Below, in pieces: positions 46,843-64,000 of a stretch of DNA of 64,000 nt. The notes beneath the pieces are model-generated. The model saw nothing but the letters and a program-made list of their open reading frames with translations. It searched no databases and was not told where the DNA came from. The stretch spans positions 11,121 to 75,120 of the IMG/VR virus record IMGVR_UViG_3300006930_000001; one strand, written 5' to 3'. The number at the start of each line of letters is the position of its first letter. Position 1 is the stretch's first letter. Source of the stretch: a virus (lineage: Duplodnaviria > Caudoviricetes). Both the position numbers and the translations under genes were made by a program.

Positions 46843-47142
46843 ATGTATTTAGGAAAAATTAACTGTCCAGATTTGGACGATGATGGTAATCCAATCTATT
46901 ATTTCAATGTAAGTGTTACAGCGAAATGTTGTCAGTATTTTGTTGTAAAAAAGGCAGCAACATATGACGATCATGGAGTAGTTCAACCAGGTGTGGTTGG
47001 ATTAGTATATTTCAAATCGCAGGAGTATATACCAAGATCTCTTGAAAATTGTGCATCTATTCTTGAACTTGCTTACAAATCATTGTTTGGCAAGACCGGA
47101 GATTTTTATGGATGGTTTTTGTCCCAGGTGAAAGCATTATGA
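46843..47142 (+). CDS. Hypothetical protein
   Basis: 99-aa ORF. Confidence 0.55.
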   Translation: MYLGKINCPDLDDDGNPIYYFNVSVTAKCCQYFVVKKAATYDDHGVVQPGVVGLVYFKSQEYIPRSLENCASILELAYKSLFGKTGDFYGWFLSQVKAL

Positions 47143-47657
47143 TGCTTGTGGCATTGGATATAAACAGGGCATCCGGAGTAAAAGTTTATTCGATGGTAGA
47201 TCAGGAATACAAAGAGATGGAACTTTCATTTTCTGCAGTATCTGTTCTGTTTCGTGTAGCAATGATGATGCAAGAACAGGGTTTTAGATCTACGTATCTT
47301 CCTGAAGAAATACAAAAATTTAGAGATATTGCTTTCCTGAATAGTCCAATGGGACCAGCATACTTCGAACCAGAAGAACATAATTATAATATTAAATTGA
47401 GTACGTTCTCATTTAATGTGGAGAAGTTATTCAAGTTGATATTGCCAGAATTGCACAGGTATGCAGAGAAATATTACTTGCATCCAAATTTCATCATACT
47501 TGGTGGTGATTATGTTGCCAGACTCCTGGAACGACAAGAAATGATACCAGAAAGGATACGATTCAATTTTACATCGATCAATGCATGCCTGGAACTTGCT
47601 CCTGATTTCCGTGGCATATACGTTACCAGAGTAGAGAATCCTGGTGAATTCAAATGA
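47112..47657 (+). CDS. Hypothetical protein
   Basis: About 170-181 aa ORF. Confidence 0.6.
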   Translation: MVFVPGESIMMLVALDINRASGVKVYSMVDQEYKEMELSFSAVSVLFRVAMMMQEQGFRSTYLPEEIQKFRDIAFLNSPMGPAYFEPEEHNYNIKLSTFSFNVEKLFKLILPELHRYAEKYYLHPNFIILGGDYVARLLERQEMIPERIRFNFTSINACLELAPDFRGIYVTRVENPGEFK

Positions 47658-47817
47658 ATATAATACTTAAAGTGGTATACAGGGATGGAAGGGAAGAAAT
47701 TATTGATGATGTTTACCAATACAAAACAAGTTTTGGATGGTTAAATATTATAACTGGATTTCATGTTCATGGATCAAAATCTATACCATCTGATTTGATT
47801 GCATCTGTGGAGCAGGT

Positions 47818-48441
47818 ATGACTTACTCAATCCTCTACGTTGATTGTCCCTGGCAATACAAAGACAAAGCTAATGCGGGTAAGCGTGGAGCAGAACACAA
47901 ATACCAGTGCATGTCCCTGGCCGAATTGATCGGAATGCGTCCATATATTGATTCTATTGCGAACGACAATTCTGTCATGTTCATGTGGGCTACAGGACCA
48001 ATTATGCCAGATGCACTAAAGGTAATGGAATATTGGGAATTTGATTACCGGACCATTGCGTTTACCTGGATCAAGACTAATCCGAAAGGGACCGGGAGAT
48101 CCCTGGATACTGGCCAACCATTGTATCTTGCCACATTCCTTAATCGTGAAGGAGAAATTGATACATATGGTGATTTCCTTGGTATGGGTAATCATACCAG
48201 GGCCAATGCAGAATTTGTTCTTCTTGGTGTGCGTGGTAAAGGATTACAAAGAGTAAATAATTCTGTGCGCTCTACAGTTATATCCCCTATTAGAGAACAT
48301 TCCAGAAAGCCTGCAGAAGTAAGAACTGCAATAGAAAATCTATATGGTGAGCAGGAAAGGATAGAATTGTTTGCCAGAGAGGTTGTTTCTGGTTGGGATG
48401 CTCATGGATTAGAAACCGACAAATTTAAATCACCAGAGTGA
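47818..48441 (+). CDS. MT-A70 family N6-adenine methyltransferase
   Basis: YVDCPW (DPPW variant), LFMW-like FMWAT, F.WIK, HSRKP, IELFAR. Confidence 0.85.
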   Translation: MTYSILYVDCPWQYKDKANAGKRGAEHKYQCMSLAELIGMRPYIDSIANDNSVMFMWATGPIMPDALKVMEYWEFDYRTIAFTWIKTNPKGTGRSLDTGQPLYLATFLNREGEIDTYGDFLGMGNHTRANAEFVLLGVRGKGLQRVNNSVRSTVISPIREHSRKPAEVRTAIENLYGEQERIELFAREVVSGWDAHGLETDKFKSPE

Positions 48442-48678
48442 TAATATTGTAATGTGGCACAGACGGAGAGTAACTACTGATACCAGCATCAACGTCCGTC
48501 TGTGTTAATAACTGATGAAAAATTGTTGTGTTGTGCCTCTGCTTCGGGTCAAACCGTTGTGGAGGTATTGGCCGGGTAATAACCGGCACTCCGAGTTCAG
48601 GATTGAGCATGACAATCCCCCTAACAACATGCACATAAGTCGGGAAATTGCCTGCAGGGACCAACCCTCCCTGTTATT

Positions 48679-48776
48679 GCCCCATTCGACAACTGGATGT
48701 CCACAGAAATGTGCCAGGGATATTATATCGATCACTGATATTCTTGGAACCACGGTTCGAGTCCGTGGATGGGGTC
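48679..48776 (+). tRNA. tRNA-like element without a normal anticodon arm
   Basis: Acceptor GCCCCAT/ATGGGGT, D-arm GACA-ACTGGA-TGTC, T-arm CACGG-TTCGAGT-CCGTG; between D and T arms a CACA-GAAA-TGTG hairpin and a 10-bp hairpin. Confidence 0.5.
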
Positions 48777-49029
48777 TGTCCATCCGTATAATCCAATTTA
48801 ATGATCTGGTATCCATTCCAGTGAGTTGCTTGGAGTTGGACCGCTGTGAATTAATCGGTAAATAAACAGCATGCGTTGTAGGAGTTCCGTAAACCTTCCG
48901 CCTTTGCTGGTTGTCGTGTTACATCAACCAGAAGTTAAGATGGTTGCTATAAACCACTCGTATATGATTCCGACGCACAGGGATCTATGGCAGTAAACTC
49001 ACAATAGGCCATTGTGTTCTGCCGTAACA

Positions 49030-49069
49030 ATGAGGAACGACTGCGATGGTTCAATTCCATCCCCTCGTT
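49030..49069 (+). ncRNA. tRNA-like minihelix (acceptor plus T-arm only)
   Basis: ATGAGGA...GATGG-TTCAATT-CCATC-CCCTCGT with only an 8-nt linker. Confidence 0.45.
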
Positions 49070-49116
49070 ATCCCTGACTGCAGCAGGGCGCTGGCCAGCG
49101 TTTTGGTCCAGCAAGT

Positions 49117-49225
49117 AGCAGATAGGTGACGAATTGGTCAAGTCAAATCGTGACTGTTATCAAATGCATCCCTGGTAACAAGATGGTTCCCAAAGGGTTC
49201 GTGGGTTCGATTCCCACATCTGCTA
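49117..49225 (+). tRNA. Leu-type (class II) tRNA-like gene with a hairpin insert in the anticodon loop
   Basis: Acceptor AGCAGAT/ATCTGCT, D-arm TGAC..GTCA, variable arm TCCCAAAGGGTTC as in archaeal tRNA-Leu, T-arm GTGGG-TTCGATT-CCCAC; anticodon not assignable. Confidence 0.55.
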
Positions 49226-49307
49226 TCTCCCTGGTCCAGTGACAGGGAAAACTTAAAGGAGAATCCTGAAAATGTTACGGCGGATCGGGAGTCACTGGTC
49301 CGAACAT

Positions 49308-49334
49308 TCTCTGCCGTGGGTAGAGATCTTTTTT
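49308..49334 (+). terminator. Hairpin plus oligo-T ending the ncRNA locus
   Basis: TCTCTGCC-GTG-GGTAGAGA followed by TCTTTTTT. Confidence 0.55.
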
Positions 49335-49358
49335 ATTGCTTCTTATCAAAGTTAATAT

Positions 49359-49817
49359 ATGCCAATTTGCAATAAGGGAATAAGAGGTTGTGTAATCTGC
49401 CAGAACAAGAAGATATCGGATATTGTGGATCCTATCGTCTTTGGTGCAGAAATGAAGATGGCAGACCTCAAGGAAAAACTTGAGAATCAGTATGGTTTAA
49501 TGTGTGAACTTACTGAACTAAAGGCTCATGCACGCCATGTATTTTTCATTGATTCTGATTCTATTGACAAAGTTTCTGAAAAAAAGAAATATGTTATAGA
49601 ATCAAAAACGATAGACATCATAAATGATGAATTGGCCGAATTGACCACTGCTATGGAAGGCTACAGGAGAAATGGCCAGGACAATACCCTTGAGTTCTCT
49701 AAGATGCAGAAGACCATGATCGAACTTCTGAACATGCGGGCAAAGATCGAGGGAGAAATCTCTGATGGTGTCATTGTAGTGCCTCCCTGGTTGGAGTCAA
49801 TGGATGACCAGGCTTAA
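49359..49817 (+). CDS. Putative terminase small subunit
   Basis: 152 aa with CxxC/HTH-like N-terminus and coiled coil; overlaps the TerL start. Confidence 0.55.
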   Translation: MPICNKGIRGCVICQNKKISDIVDPIVFGAEMKMADLKEKLENQYGLMCELTELKAHARHVFFIDSDSIDKVSEKKKYVIESKTIDIINDELAELTTAMEGYRRNGQDNTLEFSKMQKTMIELLNMRAKIEGEISDGVIVVPPWLESMDDQA

Positions 49818-51249
49818 ATTTTATGATAAGCCACTTACCCTTTTCAATTTAGCAAAAACTGTTCTTGGTTATAACAAAATAACTGAAAAGCATCGTAGGG
49901 TATGGTGTGATCCTCTTGAAGAGAATCTAAAACGATACCGGAGGCACCTGTATCTTAAACCCAGAGGAACTTACAAATCAACATTGTATACCGTTTCTTT
50001 TGCAATTAACCTGCTTATACAAGATTGGTATGATAATGGTGGAAAATTTACAAAAAGGATCCTGGTTGCCTCCGCTACAAATGAACTTGCAGAACAATTT
50101 GTTGGTGAAATAAAGCAACATCTTACCGAGAATGATAAACTGCATCGTGTATTTGGTTATAATCCAGTTAAAAGAGATAATCAAAGAGAAGTTTGGTTAA
50201 ATCCCCGTGTAGTGAAGAAAGAACCAAATATCAAAGCAAAAGGTGCATTGTCTTCACTTACATCGGAACACTATGATATCATTATCTGTGATGATATTTG
50301 TAATAACGATGATCGTGAATCTGAAACTATACGTGAGAAAAAGAAACGCTGGCTACAAGACCTTATCTCTATCCTTGAACCAGACGGTCTCCTGGTGGTA
50401 ATAGGGACCAGATGGCATTCAGATGATGTCTACCAAGGGATTATAGACAATAATCCAAAATTGCCACAGAGAGAACAATATCATATCGAAATAGAAGCAG
50501 TGGTAGATCCAGAAGGCAATCTTTTATTCCCATCCATTATAGACCATGAAAAAATTGAATCACTAAAAATTGAGAAGGGTCTTGTAGAATTCTATTCGCA
50601 GTATATGAATAATCCATTGCCAGCAGAAACACAGTTGTTTTCTACCGAAAGGATGTATTTCTACAGCGAATCACCAGAATCACTGGAGAAAGAAATAAAC
50701 TTTGCATATATGGATCCTGCTCTGGGTTCAATTGGCAAAGGAAAGAATGATTATATCGTTGTTCTATTCGGAGCAAAGAAAAATGGTTTCACTTTTGTAA
50801 GAGATTGCATCATTACCAATACCACAACACCAGATGCTGTGATAAAGGAAATGAAGCGTATGTATCGTATGTATGGATGTTCATACGTAGGAGTAGAAGC
50901 AAATGGCTACCAGACACTTTTTGCCAAAGCAGTAAGGGAAGAAGGAATGGTGGTCAAAGAAGTGAGGAGCAATAAGCCAAAGAACATCAGAATAGAATCC
51001 ATTGAACCCTGGGTAGCATCAGGAAAGATAAGGTTCAGATCTGACTGGAAAATCCATTATCCGAAGTTAATTGAGGAAATGGTTGTGTATCCAATTGGTA
51101 AACATGATGATGTCCCTGATGCTGTGCATGGTTTATCTGTGATGGGTTCCAGAAAATTATCAGGGATCAAGAAAGAATCGCTTCGGAATCTTGTAACAAC
51201 AAAGACACGGTTGCTTTTAGGGAGGAGAAATGGCAGAAGTCATAATTAA
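49804..51249 (+). CDS. terL: Terminase large subunit
   Basis: Walker A PRGTYKST, Walker B IICDD, IGTRWH, FYSQYMNNP, nuclease YMDPA and HDDVPDA. Confidence 0.92.
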   Translation: MTRLKFYDKPLTLFNLAKTVLGYNKITEKHRRVWCDPLEENLKRYRRHLYLKPRGTYKSTLYTVSFAINLLIQDWYDNGGKFTKRILVASATNELAEQFVGEIKQHLTENDKLHRVFGYNPVKRDNQREVWLNPRVVKKEPNIKAKGALSSLTSEHYDIIICDDICNNDDRESETIREKKKRWLQDLISILEPDGLLVVIGTRWHSDDVYQGIIDNNPKLPQREQYHIEIEAVVDPEGNLLFPSIIDHEKIESLKIEKGLVEFYSQYMNNPLPAETQLFSTERMYFYSESPESLEKEINFAYMDPALGSIGKGKNDYIVVLFGAKKNGFTFVRDCIITNTTTPDAVIKEMKRMYRMYGCSYVGVEANGYQTLFAKAVREEGMVVKEVRSNKPKNIRIESIEPWVASGKIRFRSDWKIHYPKLIEEMVVYPIGKHDDVPDAVHGLSVMGSRKLSGIKKESLRNLVTTKTRLLLGRRNGRSHN

Positions 51250-52597
51250 AGGTAAGAAACTCATAGCAGGTGTTTCTGGTATTGAACGTATTGATGGTAG
51301 CAAGACAGAGATTGGTCCTTATCAGTTTGTAAACACTACAAACCGGTTTGTCAAATACCAGCAGATGTGTGTCACTTCGCCACACGTTTTGATATCACTC
51401 ATTAAGTTGAGTTTATCAATAATCAAAGGATTTAGGATTGAATGCAATAATGAATCAAAGAAGAAAGAATACGAAGAATGGGCTACCAGGATATGTTTAA
51501 GATCAAAAATTCAAATGCTTGTTCTTCTGCTATGCAGGGATGGAACATACATTGCGAATATAACCAATCCCATTAAGGAAACATTTGATTTTAATCCAGT
51601 TCTTATGGAATTTGCCTCTATTTATCCAATTGGATATAAACCAGATGCAGAAAATGCAACACTTGTTTTACAAGCGCCATTTGATAGGATTATTATCAAT
51701 GAAGGTATTCAGAATGCAGAAGATGAATTAAAACGTGAAGATATCATATATGGTGCATTGTTCCCGTATATTGGAAAAATAAAGGATAATAGAGGTAGGG
51801 AAACATATGGACTGTATGGATTATCTATGCTTGAATCTATTGAAAATGTTCTTTGTGATTACCTGGATATTACCAGAGGATATGCGCAATTCATCAAGAG
51901 ATATGGTTTTGGAAGGCTTCATATTAATTACAAGGCTTTGGAGGAACTTATCAGGGAAGGAGAAGTCGATGAGGCAATTGATGCACTCAATAAATTATCT
52001 GAAGAACATGAACTGATAGAACAAAATGAAGACATAATTGGTGCCGGATTTGAAATAAAAGAACTTGATACTGGTGGATCCAATCCAAACATCACACAAT
52101 ACAAGGAATCCCTGGAGAAAGATATCCAGATAGGATTGCTTCAAGCACCACTTACAATGGGCAGGGCAGAGGGAACGACATACGCATCAGGCTACATATC
52201 CGAAGAAGAGCGTATGATAACTCTGGAAGGTATACAGAACATCGTAACAGAAATTGTGAACAATGAGATCATCAGGAAGCGTGAAGGTGCGCAGCCAGGT
52301 CAATCAATTGATGTCAGTATTGTATTTGACGAACTATCAAAGCCAAAGGTCGACTCGAAGGACCTTGGGGATGCCCGTGACAAAGGTGCAATATCAATCG
52401 AAGATTGGCGGTCAAGGAGTGGTTTCCCAGAGAAAAGGAATCCAACACATACGTATGCTGTTGATATCAACAGTAAGCCACCAAGCATGAACCCTGCTGA
52501 TAATGTAGCAAAACCAATCACTGACAAAACCAGTATTACGGATTCACAACGCCAGGATGGACAAAAGGACTTAAATAATAACGGTGTCAAAGAATAA
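51230..52597 (+). CDS. Portal protein
   Basis: 455 aa directly after TerL; YGLSMLE and RYGFGRLHI portal-like segments. Confidence 0.75.
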   Translation: MAEVIIKGKKLIAGVSGIERIDGSKTEIGPYQFVNTTNRFVKYQQMCVTSPHVLISLIKLSLSIIKGFRIECNNESKKKEYEEWATRICLRSKIQMLVLLLCRDGTYIANITNPIKETFDFNPVLMEFASIYPIGYKPDAENATLVLQAPFDRIIINEGIQNAEDELKREDIIYGALFPYIGKIKDNRGRETYGLYGLSMLESIENVLCDYLDITRGYAQFIKRYGFGRLHINYKALEELIREGEVDEAIDALNKLSEEHELIEQNEDIIGAGFEIKELDTGGSNPNITQYKESLEKDIQIGLLQAPLTMGRAEGTTYASGYISEEERMITLEGIQNIVTEIVNNEIIRKREGAQPGQSIDVSIVFDELSKPKVDSKDLGDARDKGAISIEDWRSRSGFPEKRNPTHTYAVDINSKPPSMNPADNVAKPITDKTSITDSQRQDGQKDLNNNGVKE

Positions 52598-52599
52598 TC

Positions 52600-52824
52600 A
52601 TGGCAAACTTACCAATTGCACCAGTGAAGAAACTTGCGAAGAATGTTGACCGGGAAGCACGTATCGGTGACGATGCTGTTGCACTTCTGATTCAGATGGC
52701 CGAGAAAACCATCACCGATGTAGCAAAAGAGGCATATTCACTTGCATCCTACACAGGAAGAAAGACCATCCAGTCACAGGATGTCCGGACTGCCTGCCAG
52801 AAACTCGGCATCAAGATCGAGTAA
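52600..52824 (+). CDS. Archaeal histone (HMfA/HMfB type)
   Basis: LPIAP...RIGDDA...A.EA..LA...GRKTI..QD aligns by eye with HMfB over its full length. Confidence 0.93.
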   Translation: MANLPIAPVKKLAKNVDREARIGDDAVALLIQMAEKTITDVAKEAYSLASYTGRKTIQSQDVRTACQKLGIKIE

Positions 52825-52833
52825 ACCTTTTTT

Positions 52834-52852
52834 TGTATCATTGACGCATACA
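52834..52852. promoter_or_regulatory. Degenerate operator TGTATCAT-TGA-CGCATACA
   Basis: GTAT-N9-ATAC core 8 nt upstream of the helicase ATG. Confidence 0.4.
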
Positions 52853-52860
52853 TATGCTGT

Positions 52861-54327
52861 ATGTCGTCTAAACTTGACGAAGCAAACCAGTTGTGCGAAG
52901 AAACACTCGGAAAACCATATTTCGAGATATTTGACGACGCAGATTCTTCTGATGCAGAAATAGAAGCAAATATGGTTCTTCTGCGAAAGAAGACAGAATT
53001 TGTTAGTAGAACAAAGTTACCACCAGAACCTGCTGACTCGTATCTTGATTTGTGGCGCAAATATTGGAATTCTATTGTTATACGCCAACCACTTACCTGT
53101 GAAATGTATGCTATGTGCGCAGGTTCACAATTACTCAAACACGTTACCGTTGTGAAGCAGGGAGGTGTAGAAGAAGATATCAGAGTGAATCCATGTATCA
53201 TCATGCCATCAGGAACTGGAAAATCTGAAGGCAATGATATTCTTGCTACATTTGCCAGGCAGATAGGACTTGTATTCACATCGGTTGATAGATATAATGA
53301 TGCAGTTCTTGTAGGATCCGTGATAAAGGCAGCAATCGATTACAATCTAAAAAATAGAAAAAATCCTGGCGATCCTGGATATATGGATCCAGACGAAAAA
53401 GGTATCCTGCGCAAATCACATTTTGTTGTATTTGATGAAGGAGAAAATATTCTAAAGACCAGTAAAGAGACAGAAGGTGCCCAGAGATATCTTCAAAAGG
53501 CAATGAACCGCCATAATTCAGAAGGTAACTATGTATCAAATAACCTGGTCGGATATCAGATAGGAGGCTACCCAGACTGCAGTATAGTGATCACCAGTTA
53601 TTATCTGGAAGAATTTCAAGAAACTCTTCTTGATCGTGGATTGCTCCAGCGTATGGTAGTTTTGATTCAGGAAGAAAACTATGATACAAGAACTGCAATT
53701 ATTGATAGCACTATTGATGGTATACCTACTTATGAGGATATTAAGACCACGAAAGCCAACATCCGTGGATTAAAGAATGCACGCCTGGACCTTATTCAGA
53801 AACTTGTCGATGAGGCAAGGCAGGTAAGGGATTACCACATTGATACAGAATCAATGTCACTCACCAGGGAAGCAAAAGAAATCATGAAATCTGGTGTTAA
53901 TGAATTACGTGAATTAATGCCATTCATGACAGGTCAAAAACAGATCTGGGAATCTATGGTTACTCGTATGGCTATAAATCTCCTTAAAATATCTGCAATT
54001 CATGCAATGGTAAATTACCGGAAATATGTTGATGTTCCTGATGTTCTGTATGCTACAAATATCATGATTCAGACAATGACATCTGTAGGGTTCTTTTTAC
54101 GTGAACACGTTGCAACAGTCAGTGATAGAAAAACTATACAGATACATACATTACTCAAGCGCAAGTATGTTGGTGAATCGTTCCCAAGCATGAAATGGGT
54201 CGCGCTCATAATGGAGGAATTTCATTTCCAGGAGAATAAAGCCAAATATATCATCAAAAACCTTGTGGAGAATGGGAAGTTCAAGGAGATCAAGAAAGAC
54301 GGCAAAAATTGTCTTCTCATTCAGTAA
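52861..54327 (+). CDS. MCM-like AAA+ replicative helicase
   Basis: Walker A PSGTGKS, Walker B VVFDEG, Arg finger RGLLQR, C-terminal winged helix. Confidence 0.7.
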   Translation: MSSKLDEANQLCEETLGKPYFEIFDDADSSDAEIEANMVLLRKKTEFVSRTKLPPEPADSYLDLWRKYWNSIVIRQPLTCEMYAMCAGSQLLKHVTVVKQGGVEEDIRVNPCIIMPSGTGKSEGNDILATFARQIGLVFTSVDRYNDAVLVGSVIKAAIDYNLKNRKNPGDPGYMDPDEKGILRKSHFVVFDEGENILKTSKETEGAQRYLQKAMNRHNSEGNYVSNNLVGYQIGGYPDCSIVITSYYLEEFQETLLDRGLLQRMVVLIQEENYDTRTAIIDSTIDGIPTYEDIKTTKANIRGLKNARLDLIQKLVDEARQVRDYHIDTESMSLTREAKEIMKSGVNELRELMPFMTGQKQIWESMVTRMAINLLKISAIHAMVNYRKYVDVPDVLYATNIMIQTMTSVGFFLREHVATVSDRKTIQIHTLLKRKYVGESFPSMKWVALIMEEFHFQENKAKYIIKNLVENGKFKEIKKDGKNCLLIQ

Positions 54328-54335
54328 TCTTTTTT

Positions 54336-54354
54336 AGTATGCAAGTGTAATACT
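54336..54354. promoter_or_regulatory. Operator AGTATGCA-AGT-GTAATACT
   Basis: Arms identical to the reverse complement of the 46118 site; 7 nt upstream of ATG 54362. Confidence 0.65.
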
Positions 54355-54361
54355 GTATGTC

Positions 54362-55429
54362 ATGTCGTATGAAGAACAGATCAGACAGTTGTCTGATAAG
54401 ATCATGGAGGATTTTGACTCCATGTGGGCAGTATTCAATGAGAAAGTCGAAGAATATCTTGCCATCGATGTTCCACAAAAGAAGGCAGAGATGGTTGCCT
54501 TCAAACAGTTAAAAGGTTCATACCAGGCAGCACTTCGGTCAAAGGCGATTCCAATGGAAGGCTTTGTAGTCGGGTTGACCAAAATTGTTGATCGTTCAAA
54601 CCGGGAATACAGGGAGGCTATGAAAGTCCTGGAGGACCTGAAACAAGAGAACCTTTCTGCATGGATCAATATTGGCATGAATCGTGGTATCTGTGATGCA
54701 GAAGGCAATCCTCTGTATTGTCCAGAGAATACCAGCGAGAAACAGAAGTGGCTCTGGAAACAGAAGATACCAGAACACCGATGGGAACGATCTGCGTTCG
54801 GGTATTTCAGACCAATCATCAAGGAAGATGGTGTCCAGGTAAACAATGCTCTGAAACCTGGTGTGATATATATCAGAGAAACAGAGAAGCATGTGCTGGT
54901 CCCAGGTTCAGCATATCGGTTCAGAGCCGGATGTTCAGCACCAGAAGCAACCGTTCTATCAATATCCACCGCTACACAGACAGAATTCGAAGAGACCGGC
55001 AAGGTGAGTTATGATGTTGTCATGAAGATGGTCAAGGAATTTGGCAATCTTGCTCCGTTCATTGATGTATACAATCCAAATTCCGACAATAAGATCGAGA
55101 TGCCGGAAGGTGTCAAGTTCTATGCAACAGAGGCTACTGTTGTATCGCTCACTGCAAAGCCAGAGAATTCAAATGACTCTGTAGAATTCCAGTCACTGAT
55201 GGACGATGATGTCGATCAGAACATTCGTATGACCGTTGTCAGGGAAATGGATACCTGTTTTGAGAATGCCATCGGTCTGGTAATCTATCGTCCGTATATG
55301 ACCAAGCCAGACGAGGAGAAGGGCAGAGAGGCTGAACCATCCGGTGAGATCGTAGGATTCATCCCAGATCCAACAATGTGCATTCCCCCGAAAGAAGTCA
55401 AACAGGTGAGTGCAAGTGACTTCGACTGA
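54362..55429 (+). CDS. Putative ssDNA-binding protein (RPA-like)
   Basis: Helical N-terminus, beta-rich body, acidic tail (ASDFD); position in the replication module. Confidence 0.4.
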   Translation: MSYEEQIRQLSDKIMEDFDSMWAVFNEKVEEYLAIDVPQKKAEMVAFKQLKGSYQAALRSKAIPMEGFVVGLTKIVDRSNREYREAMKVLEDLKQENLSAWINIGMNRGICDAEGNPLYCPENTSEKQKWLWKQKIPEHRWERSAFGYFRPIIKEDGVQVNNALKPGVIYIRETEKHVLVPGSAYRFRAGCSAPEATVLSISTATQTEFEETGKVSYDVVMKMVKEFGNLAPFIDVYNPNSDNKIEMPEGVKFYATEATVVSLTAKPENSNDSVEFQSLMDDDVDQNIRMTVVREMDTCFENAIGLVIYRPYMTKPDEEKGREAEPSGEIVGFIPDPTMCIPPKEVKQVSASDFD

Positions 55430-56306
55430 AGTGACCTTTGGTGTTGATGTGGGTGAACCCACCACACCTTCTGCAAAGAAAGAAGAAAAGATGCATGAAC
55501 TTGAGGAGAAACAATCACGGGTAAAAGAACTGATAGCAAACAGGCCAGAATTTTCATTTGATGATGAAGATGATGATGGATTAAACGGAATCACAGTTTT
55601 CTCTGTGTATGGATTGAAAAATGATGGAAAGACGGTCATATGTTACGGTATACCGGAAAATGGAGAAAGGGTCCTGGTGATCTCATTTGATCATATGTCC
55701 GGTGCTGCAACAAAACTGCCGTTTATTACAAATGCAGGTCTCGAATTCAAGATAAAGGATGGTCTAAAATTCATGGATCGTTCAACACTTGAAACTCTGC
55801 AGGAGACATCTGATATATCGTATGGATATTTACTTTTCCTGCTTGCAGAAGCAAAGAAACAGTTCAATCCTGATTGGATTATATTTGATGGCACCGAAGT
55901 TCTGAATACGATTCTTGAACAGGTAATGAGATTACGCAATAAACTCATGCCATACCAGGGAATTTCAAACCTGAATGTCTGGAAAGAACGAAAACAGTAT
56001 ATCGATGACATACATGCAAAAGCGGTAAAATGTGCAAACAAAGGTGTCATCTACACGATGTATACTGACCAGCATGAGGTAGTGGACAAAGAAGGACAGG
56101 TCCTGCGTAAAAAAGACATACCAAAATGGATTGGATCGGTAATGCGTGAAACCCATATCGTTATCAAAGGTGATGCAGTATTTGAAAAGGGTTCTCGCCA
56201 CTACTATGCCATAGTAGAAGGTTCAAAGAAGCCAGATATGTTTCCCGATGGCAAATATGATGTCACCAACAAGAGACTGCGGGATGTGGTATGTCGGAAC
56301 TTGTAA
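55410..56306 (+). CDS. P-loop ATPase (AAA_24/Sak4/RecA-like)
   Basis: VYGLKNDGKT Walker A; WIIFDG Walker B. Confidence 0.7.
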   Translation: MQVTSTEVTFGVDVGEPTTPSAKKEEKMHELEEKQSRVKELIANRPEFSFDDEDDDGLNGITVFSVYGLKNDGKTVICYGIPENGERVLVISFDHMSGAATKLPFITNAGLEFKIKDGLKFMDRSTLETLQETSDISYGYLLFLLAEAKKQFNPDWIIFDGTEVLNTILEQVMRLRNKLMPYQGISNLNVWKERKQYIDDIHAKAVKCANKGVIYTMYTDQHEVVDKEGQVLRKKDIPKWIGSVMRETHIVIKGDAVFEKGSRHYYAIVEGSKKPDMFPDGKYDVTNKRLRDVVCRNL

Positions 56307-56485
56307 GGATCACAGTTGGTCTGGATCCTGATACCAATGCAAAACTAAACGAACTGGATGTTATACTTGGTTCAAATAAAAGCAATGTTGTCAGGATTTG
56401 CATAAACAGGCTTTACAAACGTATCGATGAATTAAGAGAAATAATGGAGAAGGACAATGCACCAATCGACCTTAAAGACCTTTAA
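56291..56485 (+). CDS. Ribbon-helix-helix transcription factor
   Basis: RITVGLD...KLNEL...GSNKSNVVRICI. Confidence 0.75.
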   Translation: MSELVRITVGLDPDTNAKLNELDVILGSNKSNVVRICINRLYKRIDELREIMEKDNAPIDLKDL

Positions 56486-57131
56486 TGATCTTACTGAAGG
56501 CCTCACCACATCAGGAGATTATGAGGCTCATAGTGACAGCGAAGGCAATCTTGTTGCAAATATCAAAGCATTTGATATGACCGGTGTAATTTACTTATGT
56601 CTTCCGGGAGTTCCGGATATTCATATGTATGCCAACCAGAAGACGATAGACAAGTATATCGATCTTTTTACCAATCCGATTGATATTCGGACCAGCGAGG
56701 ATTCGATTCTTATCTTTAATGATGAACTGGAAGTTCTCATGCCAATGGTGGCAAAGGAGAATGCAGAAAAATTTACTGGTAAACTTCAGGCACCAATAGA
56801 TTATTCTGATGCCCAGGTATTTTCGATTCCACTTGATGCAATTGCTACCATATTCAAAGCATCCAAGAAACAGGATGATATGAAGATATTCTTTGATATG
56901 GGAGATTACCTGACCATAACCTGTGGAAAGGTGAAAAGAAAACTCAAGGAGATCACCGGGAAGCCAGGAAAGTGGACATTCAAATTTGATGTCCTGGAAC
57001 GTATGATCGGGAAAGCCACTTCTCCTGTGGTATTTACTCTAAAAAATTCAGTTACACAATTCCCTGGAAAAATTGAATACCAGGCCGGTCTTGTGAAAGT
57101 GGAAGCATACATCATGGGGATGGAAGAATGA
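56457..57131 (+). CDS. pcn: PCNA sliding clamp
   Basis: 224 aa with IKAFDMTGV..LCL, two-domain beta repeat and YIMG end; next to RFC. Confidence 0.7.
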   Translation: MHQSTLKTFNDLTEGLTTSGDYEAHSDSEGNLVANIKAFDMTGVIYLCLPGVPDIHMYANQKTIDKYIDLFTNPIDIRTSEDSILIFNDELEVLMPMVAKENAEKFTGKLQAPIDYSDAQVFSIPLDAIATIFKASKKQDDMKIFFDMGDYLTITCGKVKRKLKEITGKPGKWTFKFDVLERMIGKATSPVVFTLKNSVTQFPGKIEYQAGLVKVEAYIMGMEE

Positions 57132-57265
57132 GTAACGAAACTGTAACCATATCAAAAGAAGAATATGATCGTCTTCTTAAAGCGGAAGAGACCCTTACTG
57201 CACTTGAATCTCATGGTGTTGATAATTGGGATGGATACAGTGATGCTATGGAGGATGTATCATGA
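57128..57265 (+). CDS. 45-aa conserved phage-type protein
   Basis: VTISKEEYDRL...LE..GVDNWDGY pattern; ATGA overlaps. Confidence 0.6.
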   Translation: MSNETVTISKEEYDRLLKAEETLTALESHGVDNWDGYSDAMEDVS

Positions 57266-58119
57266 TAAAGGACCAGTTATATACCGAAAAATACCGTCCA
57301 GGTAAATTTAGTGAGATTGTGGGTCTCACAGTCGATCTCACGAAACTTGATAGTTTACCAAACCTTCTCCTGGCAGGAAGATGTGGTATTGGAAAGACTA
57401 CGCTTGCAAAAGTGATTGCAAAGGAATACAATTGTGATGTGCTCTACCTGAATGCATCTGATGAACGTGGAATTGATATGATACGTGGAAAGGTGAAGGA
57501 ATTTGCATCCACGATGTCTATCAACAAACGTGTCAAATTGGTTCACTTTGATGAGGCCGATGGTCTGACATTCGATGCACAGAATACCCTGCGTAATATC
57601 ATGGAAGAGTATTCCAACAATACCAGGTTTGTGTTCACCTGTAACAATGTCGCAAAGATCATTGAACCAATCCGGTCCAGGTGCATGGAGATCAATCTTG
57701 CCACGCCACCAATGCCGGACATCGAGGTTTACCTGGCACGCATCATAGGGGCTGAAAATATCCCGATCCCTGCACAAGACGTATCAAACATCATCTCGAT
57801 CAATTACCCGGATATACGTAGCATGGTGAACGCACTACAACACTACGCTATGTTTGGATCGGTCCCATCGAGCAATCATACTCTTGCCAATGATATCCTC
57901 GGTTTTGTAAGGTCAGGTAAGTTTCTGGATGCAAGAAAACAATGGATCGCTGCAGCACCAGATTACAAGAACCTCCTGGTGGACATGACTGATCTGATGA
58001 CAGATACGGAGATCGAGAAATGGGTAATCACCATTGCCAAATACTCGTATGAGATGTCGATTGGAGCATTTCCGGAGATATCGTTCGCAGCATGCATTAA
58101 AACAATGTGTGACAAATGA
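57262..58119 (+). CDS. rfcS: Replication factor C small subunit (clamp loader)
   Basis: EKYRP, GRCGIGKTT, LNASDERGID, DEAD, PIRSRC. Confidence 0.93.
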   Translation: MIKDQLYTEKYRPGKFSEIVGLTVDLTKLDSLPNLLLAGRCGIGKTTLAKVIAKEYNCDVLYLNASDERGIDMIRGKVKEFASTMSINKRVKLVHFDEADGLTFDAQNTLRNIMEEYSNNTRFVFTCNNVAKIIEPIRSRCMEINLATPPMPDIEVYLARIIGAENIPIPAQDVSNIISINYPDIRSMVNALQHYAMFGSVPSSNHTLANDILGFVRSGKFLDARKQWIAAAPDYKNLLVDMTDLMTDTEIEKWVITIAKYSYEMSIGAFPEISFAACIKTMCDK

Positions 58120-58269
58120 ACAGAAAAATAATATGCTCTTTTATGAGCAGACCGGTAATAACAAAGATTTACCCTGGTGGCAGGGTAGAATCAGAATTTT
58201 TCAGAGTGGAATGCTTCTCTGAATGTTCAAGTAATGTATTAGGAAAATGCACCAGAGAAAGGAAGTGTA

Positions 58270-58641
58270 ATGATGACCCAGAAGAAAATGGTTTCAGATA
58301 AGCCAAAAGAATCCGGTATACTGTTCGAAGTCGATGTAGAAGAACAGGTTCAAGAAGAACAGCCAGCAGAAAATGCAGAAGTTATAGTTGATGAATCTCC
58401 TGTAGAAGAAACACCATCAACCGATGCATTTGACAGTTATTTCAGGGATCGCAAGATTCAGTTGGATATGATAAACAAGCCAGAGAATGGATGTTTTGGA
58501 GTATTCCAATTGTATTGCAGAAGAACCGAAAAATCGTGCGATAACCGTGGATTCCAGGAGAAGCACCCGGCCACAATGCTTGCCAGGTGTCTGGTATGCA
58601 AGGACATTGGTGTCAGACTGGTGCCAAATGATACTTGCTGA
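58270..58641 (+). CDS. Hypothetical protein (acidic N-terminus, Cys cluster)
   Basis: 123-aa ORF. Confidence 0.5.
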   Translation: MMTQKKMVSDKPKESGILFEVDVEEQVQEEQPAENAEVIVDESPVEETPSTDAFDSYFRDRKIQLDMINKPENGCFGVFQLYCRRTEKSCDNRGFQEKHPATMLARCLVCKDIGVRLVPNDTC

Positions 58642-59176
58642 TTGGCAAATCCGGGATGCTGTAAGGGATAGACATATCCTAATCAGTCCTTTTTCTCATC
58701 AGAATATCAATCCTGCCTCGTATGATGTTACGCTTGGTAATGAATTCCTGATCATAGATCATGTCGATGCAATTGATCCACATAAATCCATTCTATGGGG
58801 GGATCCATATATCGCCAATGAATATCTGATAATGCCACAGGAACATGTTCTCGCTACAACGGTTGAGATAATAGGTCTTGCTAATGGAATTGTAGCACAA
58901 TTGAATGGTAAATCGTCCTGGGGAAGATTGGGGATAACCATTCATCAAACTGCGGGATATATAGACCCTGGATTCAATGGACAGATTACATTGGAGATAT
59001 TCAATGTAAACAAGCATACTCCAGTAATTCTTCGTGCGGGAGACCGTATAGGACAACTTGTATTCCAGACTATGGAAAGAAGTAAGTATCCATACAACGC
59101 AAAGAAAGGATCCAAGTATATGTTCCAGAAAGGTGTAGTTCCGAGTAAATACTACAAGAACTTTGAAGGTGAGTAA
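58628..59176 (+). CDS. dcd: dCTP deaminase
   Basis: Start MILADWQI; NPASYDVTL, GKSSWGRLG, AGYIDPGFNGQITLE. Confidence 0.92.
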   Translation: MILADWQIRDAVRDRHILISPFSHQNINPASYDVTLGNEFLIIDHVDAIDPHKSILWGDPYIANEYLIMPQEHVLATTVEIIGLANGIVAQLNGKSSWGRLGITIHQTAGYIDPGFNGQITLEIFNVNKHTPVILRAGDRIGQLVFQTMERSKYPYNAKKGSKYMFQKGVVPSKYYKNFEGE

Positions 59177-59585
59177 TATTCCATTCAAAACAATGGGTAA
59201 GATGATCAAAGGTCTTGCAACACCAGAGGATGTCGCAGGAAAGGAAGTAGTTATCTTTCATGGTCTTGGATTTGTGGATCCAACCCTGGCATCAAAGATT
59301 AACCAGTATATTTTCTTTCTGAAACCTTCCCTGGTCCAGAGACTCTTGATTGTGGCATTTTATAAGAAAAAGATGCCATCATGGATAAAGAAACCAAAAA
59401 AGGCTGAAGAAGATGACATTGATCGATATTGTAGAGAACATGCTCTCGAACGCACTCCAGTGCTTGAAAAACTGGTTGAACAGAATTACCGAGAGTTTCT
59501 TACAGAGATTCGAGCAGATGAGCCTGCATTTACAAAGGCTGGCCTCTCTCTTACAAAACCGGCAAAAAACAAGTGGTTTGGATGA
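59163..59585 (+). CDS. Possible clamp-loader A subunit (T4 gp62-like)
   Basis: 140 aa with KINQY...KKKMPSWIKKPKK pattern; weak similarity judged by eye. Confidence 0.35.
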   Translation: MKVSNIPFKTMGKMIKGLATPEDVAGKEVVIFHGLGFVDPTLASKINQYIFFLKPSLVQRLLIVAFYKKKMPSWIKKPKKAEEDDIDRYCREHALERTPVLEKLVEQNYREFLTEIRADEPAFTKAGLSLTKPAKNKWFG

Positions 59586-59775
59586 AAAACATTGCAAAGT
59601 CTGCAGTTATCAAAGAATTCACACGAAGAGGCATGACTATGGAACGATCTGGAGAAAGCATCGTATTGTCAGGAGATCTTGGCACTGTTGAGATCGAAGA
59701 AAGTAATGGCATGCTTATTATTTCGTTCTCTTGATACCACTATTTTTATTAACTTATACCGATAAACTATACTGT

Positions 59776-60108
59776 ATGCAAGAAGCATTACAGGACCTTG
59801 GGTTCACGAAAAATGAATCATTGGTAATAGCATTTTTTGCAAATACCAAAGAAGCAGATCAACGTGATATCGAAATTGCATGTGGTATCAGGCAATCTGA
59901 AGTAAGTGTTGTTATGAAATCTCTAAAGGCAAGAGGCATAATAACATATCATGAGGTTAGCGATGGAAGAGCAGCAAGACCAAAGAAGATCTATTCAATG
60001 ATTCGGCACATGGTTACGCACAATCTTGAAAAAAAGATAGAAGCGGAATATGATGCAAGAATGAATGCACTTGATAACGTCAGGAGAATCCTGAATGATA
60101 ATATTTGA
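59776..60108 (+). CDS. TrmB-like winged-helix transcription regulator
   Basis: LQDLGFTKNES...DIEIACGIRQSEVSVVMKSL..RG; likely start MQEAL. Confidence 0.75.
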   Translation: MQEALQDLGFTKNESLVIAFFANTKEADQRDIEIACGIRQSEVSVVMKSLKARGIITYHEVSDGRAARPKKIYSMIRHMVTHNLEKKIEAEYDARMNALDNVRRILNDNI

Positions 60109-62338
60109 GGCCGTTGGTCCAGATATTGTTATACGTGGAAGGCACCCAGACAATAAACGGTATGTTGAAAGAAGAAAGTATCGTCCTTATTTCTATGCAG
60201 AGGATCCAACCGGGGAATACACCAGCCTTTTTGGTGATAAATTAAAGAAGGTAATCGTTTATCATCCTTCCCAGGTAAAGACAGAACGTGTAAATTACAA
60301 AAAGACCTTTGAATCAGATGTAGTTTACATCAATCGCTACATGATCGATAATCTGGTTGAAATTCCCCAGGAACCTATCAGACTTGCATTTATCGATATC
60401 GAAGTAGATGATGAAGGATCTAATCCAGATATCGCAAAAGCAGACAAAATGATTACTGCTATATGCGTAAATGATTCTTTTACCGGAAAATATCATTGCT
60501 TCGCTTTACGTCCACCTACATTTCCGGGATCTGATGAAACGATCAAAGGAGATACTGTAAACAGGTATATTTTCAATAATGAAGAAGATATGCTTGAAAA
60601 ATTTATCAAATTTGTAGAAGTGTTTGATTTTGATCTTTTCTGGGCATGGAATGGAGATGAATTCGATTTTCCGTATATATTCAGACGATTGAAGGATTCC
60701 AAGAAATTATCACCGATGGGAGACGTTGATAACCGAACAGGGTATCCCAAGGGTAGGGTCTGGCTGGATTTGATGTGGGCATATGACAAAATGCAAACAT
60801 CCGAACTGGATTCAAAAGGATTGGATTACTGTGCAAAGCGTGAAGGTCTTGTAGGTAAACTGGAACATGATGGCAATGTTTCCCATTTGTGGAAAACTGA
60901 CTTCAACAAATTCATGGAATACAATATCCATGATGTTGAACTGATGGTAAACATTGAGAAAGCCAGGGGCATCACAAATTACTACGATGCTGTGAGAAGG
61001 ATGACCTATTGTTACTGGTATGACATCAGGCATAACAGTAGAGTCCTTGATTTCTATTACCTGAAGAAGGCACATGAGAAAAAGATTGTATTACCAAACC
61101 ACGGTAGTGGAATTCAATGGGAGCCTATAGAAGGTGCCAGAGTTCTTGATCCGATACCAGGTATGCATTACATGGTGGCAGGGGCAGATGTGAGGTCTCT
61201 GTATCCGTCTGCAATCAAATTGGGTAACATGAGTCCCGAGACTCTTGATCCGAATGGCACAATCAAAATAGGTCCTGCAACCTTTAGAGCAGATATCCGA
61301 GGATTCTTGCCACAAGTGGTCGATGAACTATGGGATTATCGTCAGGCTCTCAAGAAAAGGATGAAAGAATATCCAGAAGAATCTCCTGAACATCAACGCC
61401 TGGACGATACACAGACAGTTACCAAATTCTTATTAAATTCGGTATATGGTCTATTACTCATGCCAAAAGCAAGATTGGCGGTCAGGGACATCGGTGCGGC
61501 AGTCACTTACTTTGGGAGAATGTTTAACCAATATATGGAACAGGTAGTCCTATCATTTGGTGTTGAAGTTGTAGCAGGTGATACAGATTCTATTATGTTC
61601 AAAGTAGAATCTCCAGAACATGCAAAAACAATCGTAGATGCCATCAATGCAGGTATCCCAAAATTCATTGAGGATAATTTTGGCGATCCACGGTATAATA
61701 TCGTATATGTGGAATTTGAGAAGATTTATCTACGTGCTTTCTTCTTGGGAGATGAGGATGGTGGATCTGTAAAGAAACGGTATGCAGGTCTCATATATTA
61801 TAAGGACGGCCATATCCTTGATAAACCAGTCATAGATATCAAAGGATTCGAAGCCAAGCGATCTGATACTCCTGGATTCATTAAGGACCTTCAAAAAGAA
61901 GTTCTGGTAAATATACTTGATGAAGTTAGCCGAAAAGAGATCGTGGGTAAGATTGCTGCAGTAAAAGCAGATATACTCAATGGAATATACACTGGAGATA
62001 ACCTGGGAATACCAAAGGGTATTAGCAGAAACCTGCATGAGTATGAACGGTCTATACCTGCCCAGGTTACTGGTGCTATTTATTCCAACACTTACCTTGG
62101 CACAAATATTAAACGGACGAAGGTAAAATACATATATGTTTCAGGAGTTCCAGATGGACTTCCAAAAACGCATGTAATATCCTTCGTTGATAAAATGCCA
62201 CCAGGATTCACAATCGATTATGAAAAGATGGCAGAAACACTGGTTACATCTAAATTTGGGAATATATTTGCGTCAATGGGATGGGATCTGGTAGAACTTG
62301 AAGGATTTACTCAGGTAAAAGGTGGTGCATTTTGGTAA
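60095..62338 (+). CDS. polB: Family B DNA polymerase
   Basis: Exonuclease FIDIE/WNG..FD/YN..D; polymerase D..SLYPS, K..LNS.YG, GDTDS, KKRY. Confidence 0.97.
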   Translation: MIIFEAVGPDIVIRGRHPDNKRYVERRKYRPYFYAEDPTGEYTSLFGDKLKKVIVYHPSQVKTERVNYKKTFESDVVYINRYMIDNLVEIPQEPIRLAFIDIEVDDEGSNPDIAKADKMITAICVNDSFTGKYHCFALRPPTFPGSDETIKGDTVNRYIFNNEEDMLEKFIKFVEVFDFDLFWAWNGDEFDFPYIFRRLKDSKKLSPMGDVDNRTGYPKGRVWLDLMWAYDKMQTSELDSKGLDYCAKREGLVGKLEHDGNVSHLWKTDFNKFMEYNIHDVELMVNIEKARGITNYYDAVRRMTYCYWYDIRHNSRVLDFYYLKKAHEKKIVLPNHGSGIQWEPIEGARVLDPIPGMHYMVAGADVRSLYPSAIKLGNMSPETLDPNGTIKIGPATFRADIRGFLPQVVDELWDYRQALKKRMKEYPEESPEHQRLDDTQTVTKFLLNSVYGLLLMPKARLAVRDIGAAVTYFGRMFNQYMEQVVLSFGVEVVAGDTDSIMFKVESPEHAKTIVDAINAGIPKFIEDNFGDPRYNIVYVEFEKIYLRAFFLGDEDGGSVKKRYAGLIYYKDGHILDKPVIDIKGFEAKRSDTPGFIKDLQKEVLVNILDEVSRKEIVGKIAAVKADILNGIYTGDNLGIPKGISRNLHEYERSIPAQVTGAIYSNTYLGTNIKRTKVKYIYVSGVPDGLPKTHVISFVDKMPPGFTIDYEKMAETLVTSKFGNIFASMGWDLVELEGFTQVKGGAFW

Positions 62339-62841
62339 AACCTACATTTGATGATATGCAGAAACTTTCAGAGCGTGCATTTGTTCTTGAACTTGAAGAG
62401 ATACCAGGCTTTGTTAGAGAAGTCATAGAAAAATTTGAACTGGAGGGTATACAGAAATGTAATCTTGCAGTTATCACATCGATTGCATTGCTCAAGAATT
62501 TTGTCGAAGGCAAACTTTTTGATATGTCAGAATCAGAATTTGAACAGACAAAATGGTTACTTCTGAAATCGTTGTTCCCAGATCTTGGTGATGGACCAAT
62601 AAGTATCATGAAATGGAATACTCTTCTTGTTCCATCAGGAGAATCGTATTTCAAGTCAATATCACCAGAAGCATTCGAAACTATTCAACAGTCTGCACGC
62701 TTGCTCTTGGATATGCATAATTCTGGAAGCAGGACCTATGAACCAGAACAGATCAAGCATTGGGAAAATATCATCAATGGCGAAGTCCCATTCGGGTATA
62801 CTATAATTAAACCGGATGAAGATCAAACCAAAGAGGTATGA
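62332..62841 (+). CDS. Hypothetical protein
   Basis: 169 aa helical. Confidence 0.6.
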   Translation: MVKPTFDDMQKLSERAFVLELEEIPGFVREVIEKFELEGIQKCNLAVITSIALLKNFVEGKLFDMSESEFEQTKWLLLKSLFPDLGDGPISIMKWNTLLVPSGESYFKSISPEAFETIQQSARLLLDMHNSGSRTYEPEQIKHWENIINGEVPFGYTIIKPDEDQTKEV

Positions 62842-63999: not shown

Positions 64000-64000
64000 A

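Follow-up and report, generated by a model that had tools for sequence, protein, structure and literature searches.

The DNA analysed here (the window) is a stretch of 64,000 nucleotides, bases 11121-75120 of the complete 75,120-bp IMG/VR record IMGVR_UViG_3300006930_000001, from a tailed virus (Duplodnaviria; Caudoviricetes). Directly behind the portal gene, at 52600-52824, lies a short gene that encodes a variant of the archaeal HMf-type histones. We regard it as close to certain that this is a real, selectively maintained virus gene for a histone of the archaeal nucleosomal class. In every virus lineage in which we found such a histone, both of the surfaces through which canonical archaeal histones polymerise are altered, as judged from alignments. 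We propose that the protein bends DNA as a dimer or short oligomer and that it limits or loosens hypernucleosomes at packaging. To the whole statement, an HMf-type viral histone together with this polymer-limiting mechanism, we give a probability of about 0.4, and to the mechanism by itself about 35-40%.

An HMf-type histone encoded by a tailed virus

The histone open reading frame (ORF) matched the Pfam family PF00808 (CBFD_NFYB_HMF) with an E-value of 1.9e-15 and 57.3 bits, the cut-off being 21.4, and the match was recovered again when the whole genome was scanned. The core Histone family, PF00125, also matched (E 2.1e-10). By sequence, the closest relatives of solved structure are HMfA and HMfB (E 3e-10 to 9e-10), and HPhA was matched as well. 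An AlphaFold2 (AF2) model made with 27 relatives had a mean predicted local distance difference test score (pLDDT) of 93.7 and helices at residues 6-14, 24-51 and 59-69, with an alpha2 of 28 residues and a full-length alpha3. When this model was searched with Foldseek the top matches were HMfA, HMfB and the HMfB-DNA structure 5T5K, with template-modelling (TM) scores of 0.84-0.93 and root-mean-square deviations of 0.9-1.4 Å. A first-pass annotation, made from the letters of the sequence, had called the gene a virus-encoded HMf-type histone, and Pfam, AF2 and Foldseek agree on that call. It is the only histone gene in the virus genome.

An LPIAP motif that is common to HMf-type histones stands near the N-terminus. 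The DNA-binding residues are K11 (HMfB R10), R21 (R19), R54-K55-T56 (R52-K53-T54) and D61 (D59), and the R52-D59 clamp of HMfB is kept as R54-D61. K11 is an Arg in the other five virus lineages described below. The annotation had stated that the DNA-binding residues are kept, and the HMMER alignments bear this out for R21, R54-K55-T56 and D61. The viral histone should bind DNA. It resembles HMfA and HMfB of Methanothermus fervidus (1HTA, 1A7W, 5T5K) in its three-helix fold, 28-residue alpha2 and 39-40% identity, as well as in LPIAP, R/K10, R19, R52-K53-T54, D59, L46 and a modelled handshake homodimer. It differs from them in being encoded by a virus, in having Tyr49, Asp16 (HMfB numbering), one extra residue in loop L1 and a Lys at the G9 position, and in a tail of 5-7 residues.

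The homodimer comes from a predicted complex of four histone copies, which was run with controls. The four-copy prediction scored 0.86, against 0.08 for the best control; a score of 0.86 was reached by 20 of 30 proteins that have been solved as same-chain pairs and by one of 23 solved as single chains. Contact agreement between runs was at least 92% and the partner pLDDT at least 87. The confident interface is an antiparallel alpha2 handshake, comprising residues 3-46 and 55-66 and the C-terminal tail, 71-74, which rests on the partner. A handshake homodimer is supported by this prediction, although the result may simply reflect likeness to solved histone dimers. No confident contacts of a four-helix bundle were listed in the four-copy model, which by the rule of the method speaks neither for nor against a tetramer; DNA-free tetramer predictions are unreliable even for HMfB (PMC13260811).

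Is the gene a functionless passenger, such as a recently acquired host histone, or an artefact of a chimeric contig? The first-pass annotation had named near-identity to a host gene and contig contamination as the findings that would undo its proposal. A word-index search for close histone homologues returned the histone itself as the sole match. When 1.84 billion cluster representatives were scanned exhaustively with HMMER, only 102 matches at E <1e-3 were obtained. The nearest singlet, P0003, is 60% identical and comes from a contig with the order TerL-portal-histone-489 aa, in which TerL is the large terminase subunit. The next nearest singlet among these representatives, and the closest protein outside the virus clade, is 52% identical. 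Genome-encoded histones from 80 loci are 37-48% identical to the viral histone, and in 284 Methanosarcinales genomes no histone scored above 46 bits with the viral profile.

By following the portal family and the histone itself we gathered six virus lineages from independent assemblies: A (the window virus), B (L002, L004, L157 and the L009 contig), C (L111, L112, L158), D (L113), E (L159) and F (L160). All six have the histone between the portal gene and a gene with a DUF3987 domain. Among lineages A-D the histones are 45-59% identical in pairwise comparisons. Between A and B the identity is 59.5% for the histone, 58.7% for the portal and 56.4% for the DUF3987 protein, and the ratio of nonsynonymous to synonymous substitution rates (dN/dS) of the histone is about 0.26, with synonymous sites near saturation. 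L009 (JAKQFQ010000222.1, 5,555 bp) is a fragment of virus B, carrying TerL, portal and histone, that was placed in a 'Bacillota bacterium' metagenome-assembled genome (MAG). This label is almost certainly a binning error and is uninformative on the host.

In a maximum-likelihood tree, the comparison with host histones that the annotation had suggested, the four viral histones included fall into a single clade (96/91), which lies outside the clade of Methanosarcinales histones (99/99). Only metagenomic histones make up the loose sister group of the viral clade. It looks as if the histone was captured once, by the ancestor of a small virus clade, and has been kept since between the portal gene and the replication block. 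The general frequency with which viruses capture host genes is all that favours a passenger or an artefact. The gene is intact in the same slot in six diverged lineages from independent assemblies with conserved synteny, 22 of its residues are invariant, dN/dS is about 0.26, no cellular histone is more than 52% identical, and in a complete genome it has viral genes on both sides. We therefore excluded both of these explanations.

Other matches lie outside this clade. L189 (IMGVR_UViG_3300028833_000441, 29.4 kb) encodes a 67-residue histone of the ordinary type, with His49, no L1 insertion and 38% identity; archaeal histones have therefore been captured by viruses more than once. A diverged histone at L005:6001-6297 (P0025, 98 residues) has an extra L1 residue and a ...RMGIKL... 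tail, and its 17-kb contig, which carries many small unannotated ORFs on the same strand, looks viral or plasmid-like. The top match of the exhaustive search was a protein of 2,244 residues (P0002, E 6.6e-30) with 12 separate histone-fold stretches, and proteins of 1,211, 649 and 523 residues with 5-6 such stretches were also among the matches.

Residues altered at the polymerisation surfaces

Twenty-two positions are invariant across the six lineages. They include L4, P5, K10, K14, D17, R21 and G23 in the first part of the protein and L48, Y51, G53, R54, K55, T56, D61, L69 and G70 in the rest. Constraint thus acts on the fold, on the R-D clamp and on the DNA anchors. Two of the invariant residues set the viral histones apart from cellular ones. 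At HMfB position 49, all 79 genome-encoded histones have His and all six viral lineages have Tyr (Y51); at position 16, Gly is found in 79 of 79 and Asp (D17) in six of six. In addition, one extra L1 residue is present in each of the six lineages and in none of the 79. An invariant Lys occupies the HMfB G9 position in the six viral lineages, and was not seen there in the 79 genome-encoded histones sampled. D17 is followed by Arg or Ala. All six end in a C-terminal LG motif followed by a tail of 5-7 residues, a feature that the 79 sampled histones likewise lack.

The first-pass annotation had noted the replacement of His by Tyr at the dimer-dimer interface, correctly, since HMfB His49 corresponds to Tyr51. 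It had also described a two-residue insertion in L1; in the HMMER alignments with HMfA, HMfB and HPhA, the L1 of the viral histone is longer by one residue. The change of Gly16 to Asp in L1, which it did not mention, is more telling than the length of the loop.

Criteria for hypernucleosome formation were set out by Henneman et al. 2018 (PMC6136690). They comprise a dimer-dimer interface made of L46/H49/D59/L62, a small residue at G16 in a stacking loop with nothing bulky at 15-17, which is required because bulkier residues hinder multimerisation, and the stacking pairs 30-61, 34-65 and 14-48. In the viral histones the dimer-dimer interface is partly altered: L48 and D61 are kept and H49 is replaced by Tyr. 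In place of the small residue at 16 they have the invariant Asp17, and L1 is longer. The stacking pairs are Q32-R63, K36-Q67 and N15-S50 in the window virus and E32-R63, K36-S67 and S15-R50 in virus B, and some of them could form hydrogen bonds.

A residue other than His at position 49 has been tied to 'capstone' paralogues, which halt the growth of oligomers (Stevens et al. 2020, 10.1101/2020.04.13.037952). The capstone paralogues of Methanobacteriales (Msp_0383, Msm_1260), which share a non-His residue at 49 with the viral histone, are proposed to stop oligomer extension and are expressed at low levels compared with the main histones (10.1101/2020.04.13.037952). They are chromosomal, have Glu or a hydrophobic residue at 49, and form tetramers that are unstable in molecular dynamics. 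The viral histone differs in having Tyr at 49, in belonging to a virus and in the additional change of its stacking loop.

On this basis we propose the following. The viral histone, as a dimer or in short oligomers, would bind about 30 bp of DNA and bend it. Whether by itself or together with the single histone of the host, it would restrict the hypernucleosome fibres on replicated viral DNA or loosen them. It would do so at the time of packaging, as a 'capstone-like' variant made by the virus, and so let the terminase-portal motor take up the DNA. It would be made late and in low copy number, and the capsid would not be filled with chromatin. A more specific version, in which the Tyr49/Asp16 variant co-assembles with the host histone on viral concatemers and there caps or loosens the hypernucleosomes, enabling terminase to strip and package the DNA, we consider doubtful.

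Several points weigh against the proposed mechanism. Position 62 reads T/T/M/T/A/T across the viral lineages; cellular histones vary here too (L, M, E, Q), so that this position carries little weight. Some stacking pairs could survive, for example E32-R63 in virus B. In the nucleosome, H2B pairs with H4 through a four-helix bundle. Eukaryotic H2B (PDB 8grq_D) has Tyr at the aligned position, so Tyr49 may retune the bundle instead of abolishing it. Tyr is also found at 49 in four of 72 metagenomic relatives. Moreover, some chromosomal histones of Methanosarcinales have one or two extra L1 residues, so that the length of L1 alone does not mark a histone as viral or non-polymerising. From the gene context come two further points: the position beside the portal gene supports a role as a packaging accessory equally well, and the timing and dosage of the histone are read from motifs only. 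Examples of the long L1 are L133, L135, L136, L139, L141 and L144, all from Methanosarcinales, with loops such as ...SASEGDIRVSES..., ILKL(G/E/D) C-termini and His49 kept.

The likeness to H2B extends beyond the Tyr. The viral histone aligns with 8grq_D without a gap through L1 and has in common with it Tyr at the H49 position and Thr at the L62 position. It is speculative, but virus-borne histones may have explored H2B-like heterotypic interfaces. Both viral histones compared with eukaryotic chains rank those of the H2B and NF-YB class above H4; for a canonical Methanothermobacter histone, H4 is among the first eukaryotic matches, beside an H2B-H2A fusion, and the differences amount to a few bits. 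We considered whether the H2B/NF-YB likeness reflects special ancestry and rejected this as weak, since the scores of the canonical histone against eukaryotic chains are similar.

The packaging unit and the likely host

The features of the region are listed in Table 1. The histone gene follows the genes for the small terminase subunit (TerS) position, TerL and the portal, and the four are separated by overlaps of 14 and 20 nt and then a gap of 2 nt between the portal ORF and the histone ATG. The annotation had placed the histone start 2 nt after the portal stop, which proved right, and the identity of the portal is confirmed by its fold.

Table 1. Features of the window discussed in the text.
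Feature	Position	Strand	Size and basis
T-rich TATA-like box (T6 run 49329-49334)	49326..49340	+	putative promoter; ~30 nt before TerS start
ORF in TerS position, first cistron	49359..49817	+	152 aa; position alone; overlaps TerL by 14 nt
Large terminase subunit TerL	49804..51249	+	phrog_38 E 8.9e-89; Pfam Terminase_6C 7e-06
Portal protein	51230..52597	+	AF2/Foldseek fold match; Portal_Mu 8.7e-05 (weak)
Variant HMf-type histone, last cistron of packaging unit	52600..52824	+	74 aa, ATG start; Pfam, AF2, Foldseek
T7 run (52828-52834) and GTAT-N9-ATAC palindrome	52828..52851	+	possible oligo-T terminator; putative TATA-like box and operator of next gene
DUF3987/primase-like protein, first gene of replication block	52861..54327	+	488 aa; Pfam DUF3987 1.9e-05; phrog_10514 DNA primase 9.6e-07
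HK97/encapsulin-type major capsid protein	27649-28491
TrmB-type regulator	59731-60108

The 152-residue ORF in the TerS position had no Pfam or PHROG match. TerL is 481 residues long in the window. In sister viruses C and D it is 827-833 residues long and has LAGLIDADG matches (L111:1530-4013, L113:1533-4034), which suggests an intein or a homing-endonuclease insertion that is absent from the window TerL. For the portal, the Pfam match alone is weak, and among 20 relatives Portal_Mu was matched in 10 and Phage_portal in three. No match was found when the portal was searched by tblastn against 50,697 GenBank phage records; a search of viral contigs with the portal gave nothing and its profile gave nothing useful against PDB sequences. 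Neither the portal nor the histone matched any PHROGs family. The identity of the portal is nevertheless settled, because the top 50 Foldseek matches of its AF2 model in the PDB are all phage portals, including that of Haloferax tailed virus 1 (HFTV1).

How is the histone likely to be expressed? GGAG-type motifs precede both TerL and the portal at -6 to -11 (GGAG at -11 of TerL; a strong Shine-Dalgarno motif, GGGAGGAG, at -9 to -6 of the portal), and no Shine-Dalgarno motif lies at -5 to -12 of the histone. About 30 nt before the starts of TerS (49329-49334), the DUF3987 gene (52828-52834) and the gene after it (54330-54335) there are boxes of the form CTTTTTT(A/G)T. None of these three genes has a Shine-Dalgarno motif (for TerS, ahead of the ATG at 49359), and the boxes would fit the TATA boxes of leaderless transcripts. 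T-rich TATA-like boxes flank the packaging unit, occurring only before TerS and after the histone. The T6 run at TerS is one of just six T runs of six or more in 47000-64000, and the motif also precedes the equivalent gene in L004. This box would be the promoter of the packaging unit and give a leaderless transcript. The T7 run begins 4 nt past the histone stop, and a T-rich run directly after the stop is kept in viruses B, C and D. From this arrangement we infer that the TerS-TerL-portal transcription unit has the histone as its fourth cistron and ends with it. Translation of the histone would re-initiate once the portal has been read, and its expression would therefore be late and modest.

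A palindrome of the GTAT-N9-ATAC type lies between box and ATG at two of the three sites (52828-52851 and 54330-54354), and the TerS promoter is without one. Virus B has a similar palindrome with a six-base spacer. This difference suggests that the packaging and replication genes may be under different control. Could the histone itself, as an NF-Y-like dimer, be a sequence-specific regulator that recognises viral promoters or operators? The palindromes at the neighbouring promoters would provide targets, both viral histones match NF-YB and H2B-class PDB chains at E 1e-3 to 1e-6, and an LG motif follows alpha3. Yet a canonical archaeal histone matches NF-YB about equally, the viral protein has no added DNA-reading element and no partner subunit, and the TrmB-type regulator is a better candidate for the palindromes. 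We consider this role very improbable.

The gene order bears most directly on a role for the histone as a packaging accessory or low-copy head protein. Its dimer might bend DNA at the start of packaging, or bind the portal and the DNA end in the head. In bacteria, host IHF aids terminase assembly at lambda cos, and SPP1 gp7 is a DNA-binding protein that is encoded right after the portal gene and found in the head. The histone closes the TerS-TerL-portal unit as its last cistron, and its translation is apparently coupled to that of the portal. In the distant relative L118 the slot after the portal holds a minor head protein of the Mu-F type, and the lost polymerisation features would fit work by single dimers. 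Against this, the histone is missing in L116/117 (portal 42% identical), where the order TerS-TerL-portal-DUF3987 is the same and the portal adjoins the DUF3987-like gene. In L114 (JAOQIC010000016.1, 72.8 kb; portal 46% identical) it is replaced by an unrelated ORF of 97 residues (L114:5394-5687), which had no Pfam and no histone-profile match. Since sister viruses with the same gene order do without it, the packaging machine does not need the histone. Nor was a pac or cos site identified. An accessory role is unlikely in our estimate. The slot between portal and DUF3987 gene seems to accept different small genes; a relative in a Methanolobus MAG (portal 39% identical) has a classical Mu-F head protein after the portal. 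The DUF3987 protein, which always follows the histone, is 56-63% identical in viruses B, C, E and F.

The low dosage that this arrangement predicts also bears on the possibility of a self-sufficient viral chromatin, in which short or open hypernucleosomes of the viral histone would organise or protect replicating genomes, and might even enter the capsid in bulk as in Marseilleviridae. Such chromatin could protect viral DNA from host nucleases, CRISPR adaptation or host histones. All the DNA-binding residues, L46 and D59 are kept, and Tyr could in principle form a hydrogen bond with Asp59. In giant viruses, the genomes in the virion are indeed packaged by histones (cited in PMC11390915, PMC9145170). 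However, Asp stands at G16, where the published stacking criterion (PMC6136690) has a small residue. At about 30 bp per dimer, a genome of 75 kb would take about 2,500 dimers, a number that would clash with a cistron that has no ribosome-binding motif of its own and lies behind a portal present in 12 copies per virion. The motors of tailed viruses thread bare duplex DNA through the portal channel, which leaves no way in for wrapped DNA in bulk, and bulk co-packaging with a portal-driven motor is unlikely. We rate a self-sufficient chromatin as rather improbable.

The first-pass annotation had offered three functions for the histone: chromatinising viral DNA, being co-packaged with it, and capping or poisoning host hypernucleosomes. 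Of these, capping or poisoning agrees best with the conserved residue changes. The poorest fits are full chromatinisation and bulk co-packaging, in view of what would be low-copy coupled translation and of a portal-driven motor.

The genome outside the packaging unit is that of a complete tailed virus, with a 110-bp direct terminal repeat and a CheckV completeness estimate of 100%. A tail tube protein is encoded, as are fibre proteins with lectin, collagen and DUF2793 domains. The replication block includes the DUF3987/primase-like protein, an RFC-type clamp loader, a dCTP deaminase, the TrmB regulator and a family-B polymerase. One of the fibre proteins, of 1,060 residues (19283-22465, minus strand), has DUF2793, collagen repeats and a weak match to Mtd_N (major tropism determinant). 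ANMV-1, which carries a diversity-generating retroelement, is the best GenBank phage match of TerL, at 35% identity.

Relatives of TerL at about 40% identity are present in 12 of 68 genomes of the order of ANME-1 (anaerobic methanotrophic archaea), and no histone was found in the stretches fetched beside them. In Methanobacteriales the TerL matches are only 23-29% identical. Relatives of the portal at about 39% identity were found in 29 of the 284 Methanosarcinales genomes, inside megabase contigs, and are thus proviruses; some are labelled Methanolobus and Methanosarcina by NCBI. A comparison of 20 kb with the 68 ANME-1-order genomes for spacer-like DNA matches gave only 23-nt hits (E ~0.004-0.006), which we took as chance. 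The host is probably a methane-cycling archaeon of a Methanosarcinales or ANME lineage.

A histone was matched in 231 of the 284 Methanosarcinales genomes, nearly all of them with a single match. In a host with a single histone, a viral paralogue would create a two-histone system in the infected cell. This, together with the conserved changes at the oligomerisation surfaces, might also point to a takeover of the host: the viral histone could compact or mis-organise the host chromosome, or heterodimerise with the histone of the host, as a late shut-off of host transcription or replication, and in a mostly single-histone order a dominant paralogue could act strongly. But genes for shut-off are usually early, and this one sits with the late packaging genes. 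Nothing in the protein would direct it to host over viral DNA, and its likely low dose argues against action across a whole genome unless it acts as a cap. Such a takeover is quite improbable.

Known viral histones and what the finding would mean

Histones on tailed-virus contigs have been reported before. The IMG/VR 4 survey of Liu et al., hLife 2025 (PMC13681535), describes HMf-like histone-fold proteins in Caudoviricetes with predicted hosts in the Methanobacteriota. Its set resembles the present case in consisting of archaeal-type histone singlets on tailed-virus contigs, and the window is itself an IMG/VR record. In the part of that article available to us, no gene context, residue analysis or function is given for the Caudoviricetes histones (PMC13681535). 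The first-pass annotation had said that histones in tailed archaeal viruses appear to be rarely described. For isolated viruses this is fair, in that a tblastn search with the histone found no match in the 50,697 GenBank phage records, but the 2025 survey had already found such proteins in Caudoviricetes. Reviews of viral histones make no mention of phages or archaeal viruses.

The other viral histones are of different kinds. Giant-virus histones (Marseilleviridae doublets and Medusavirus; PMC8357426, PMC9145170) are likewise virus-encoded histone folds that bind viral DNA, and in the BFVD viral library they are the only structural neighbours of the viral histone. They resemble eukaryotic histones, come as H2B-H2A and H4-H3 doublets or in sets of four, and form nucleosomes in the virions of eukaryotic viruses. 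The histone studied here, by contrast, has a single fold of the archaeal type, encoded by one gene of a tailed virus with a motor for bare DNA. The 'phage histones' of Schwab et al. 2024 (PMC11390915) are also histone folds on Caudovirales-type contigs. In these, alpha3 is truncated to 3-4 residues, a helix for tetramerisation stands at the C-terminus and the R-T-D motif is missing, unlike in the viral histone, which has a full alpha3 (59-69), the R54-T56-D61 motif and no extra C-terminal domain. With its full alpha3 and full R-T-D motif, it therefore belongs to the nucleosomal family and not to the Schwab class.

Bacteriophages offer a parallel of role. SPO1 TF1 is a homologue of HU. Like IHF at lambda cos and SPP1 gp7, it may be compared with the viral histone by analogy, as a host-type DNA-bending protein that a virus makes or borrows to replicate, to transcribe its late genes or to package its DNA, and in the case of gp7 also by gene position. 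The folds are unrelated and the hosts are bacterial.

New here are the portal-coupled position of the gene and a Tyr49/Asp16 signature that is conserved across the lineages; archaeal-type histones were already known from some tailed viruses, and this is unchanged by our analysis. How archaeal viruses deal with the histone chromatin of their hosts, including how histone-coated DNA is made ready for the packaging motor, is essentially unstudied. The viral clade provides a compact and conserved object for such work, with 74 residues, two signature changes that can be reverted (Tyr51 and Asp17) and a defined genetic context. It could also put the 'capstone' idea to the test, for which the support to date comes mainly from simulation. 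Should the more specific version of the mechanism, with co-assembly on viral concatemers, be true, a viral counter-measure to archaeal chromatin would be known for the first time, in the form of an anti-polymerising histone that is a natural and portable capstone. If the histone only bends DNA or aids packaging, it would be the first archaeal-histone counterpart of the HU/IHF-type helpers encoded by phages.

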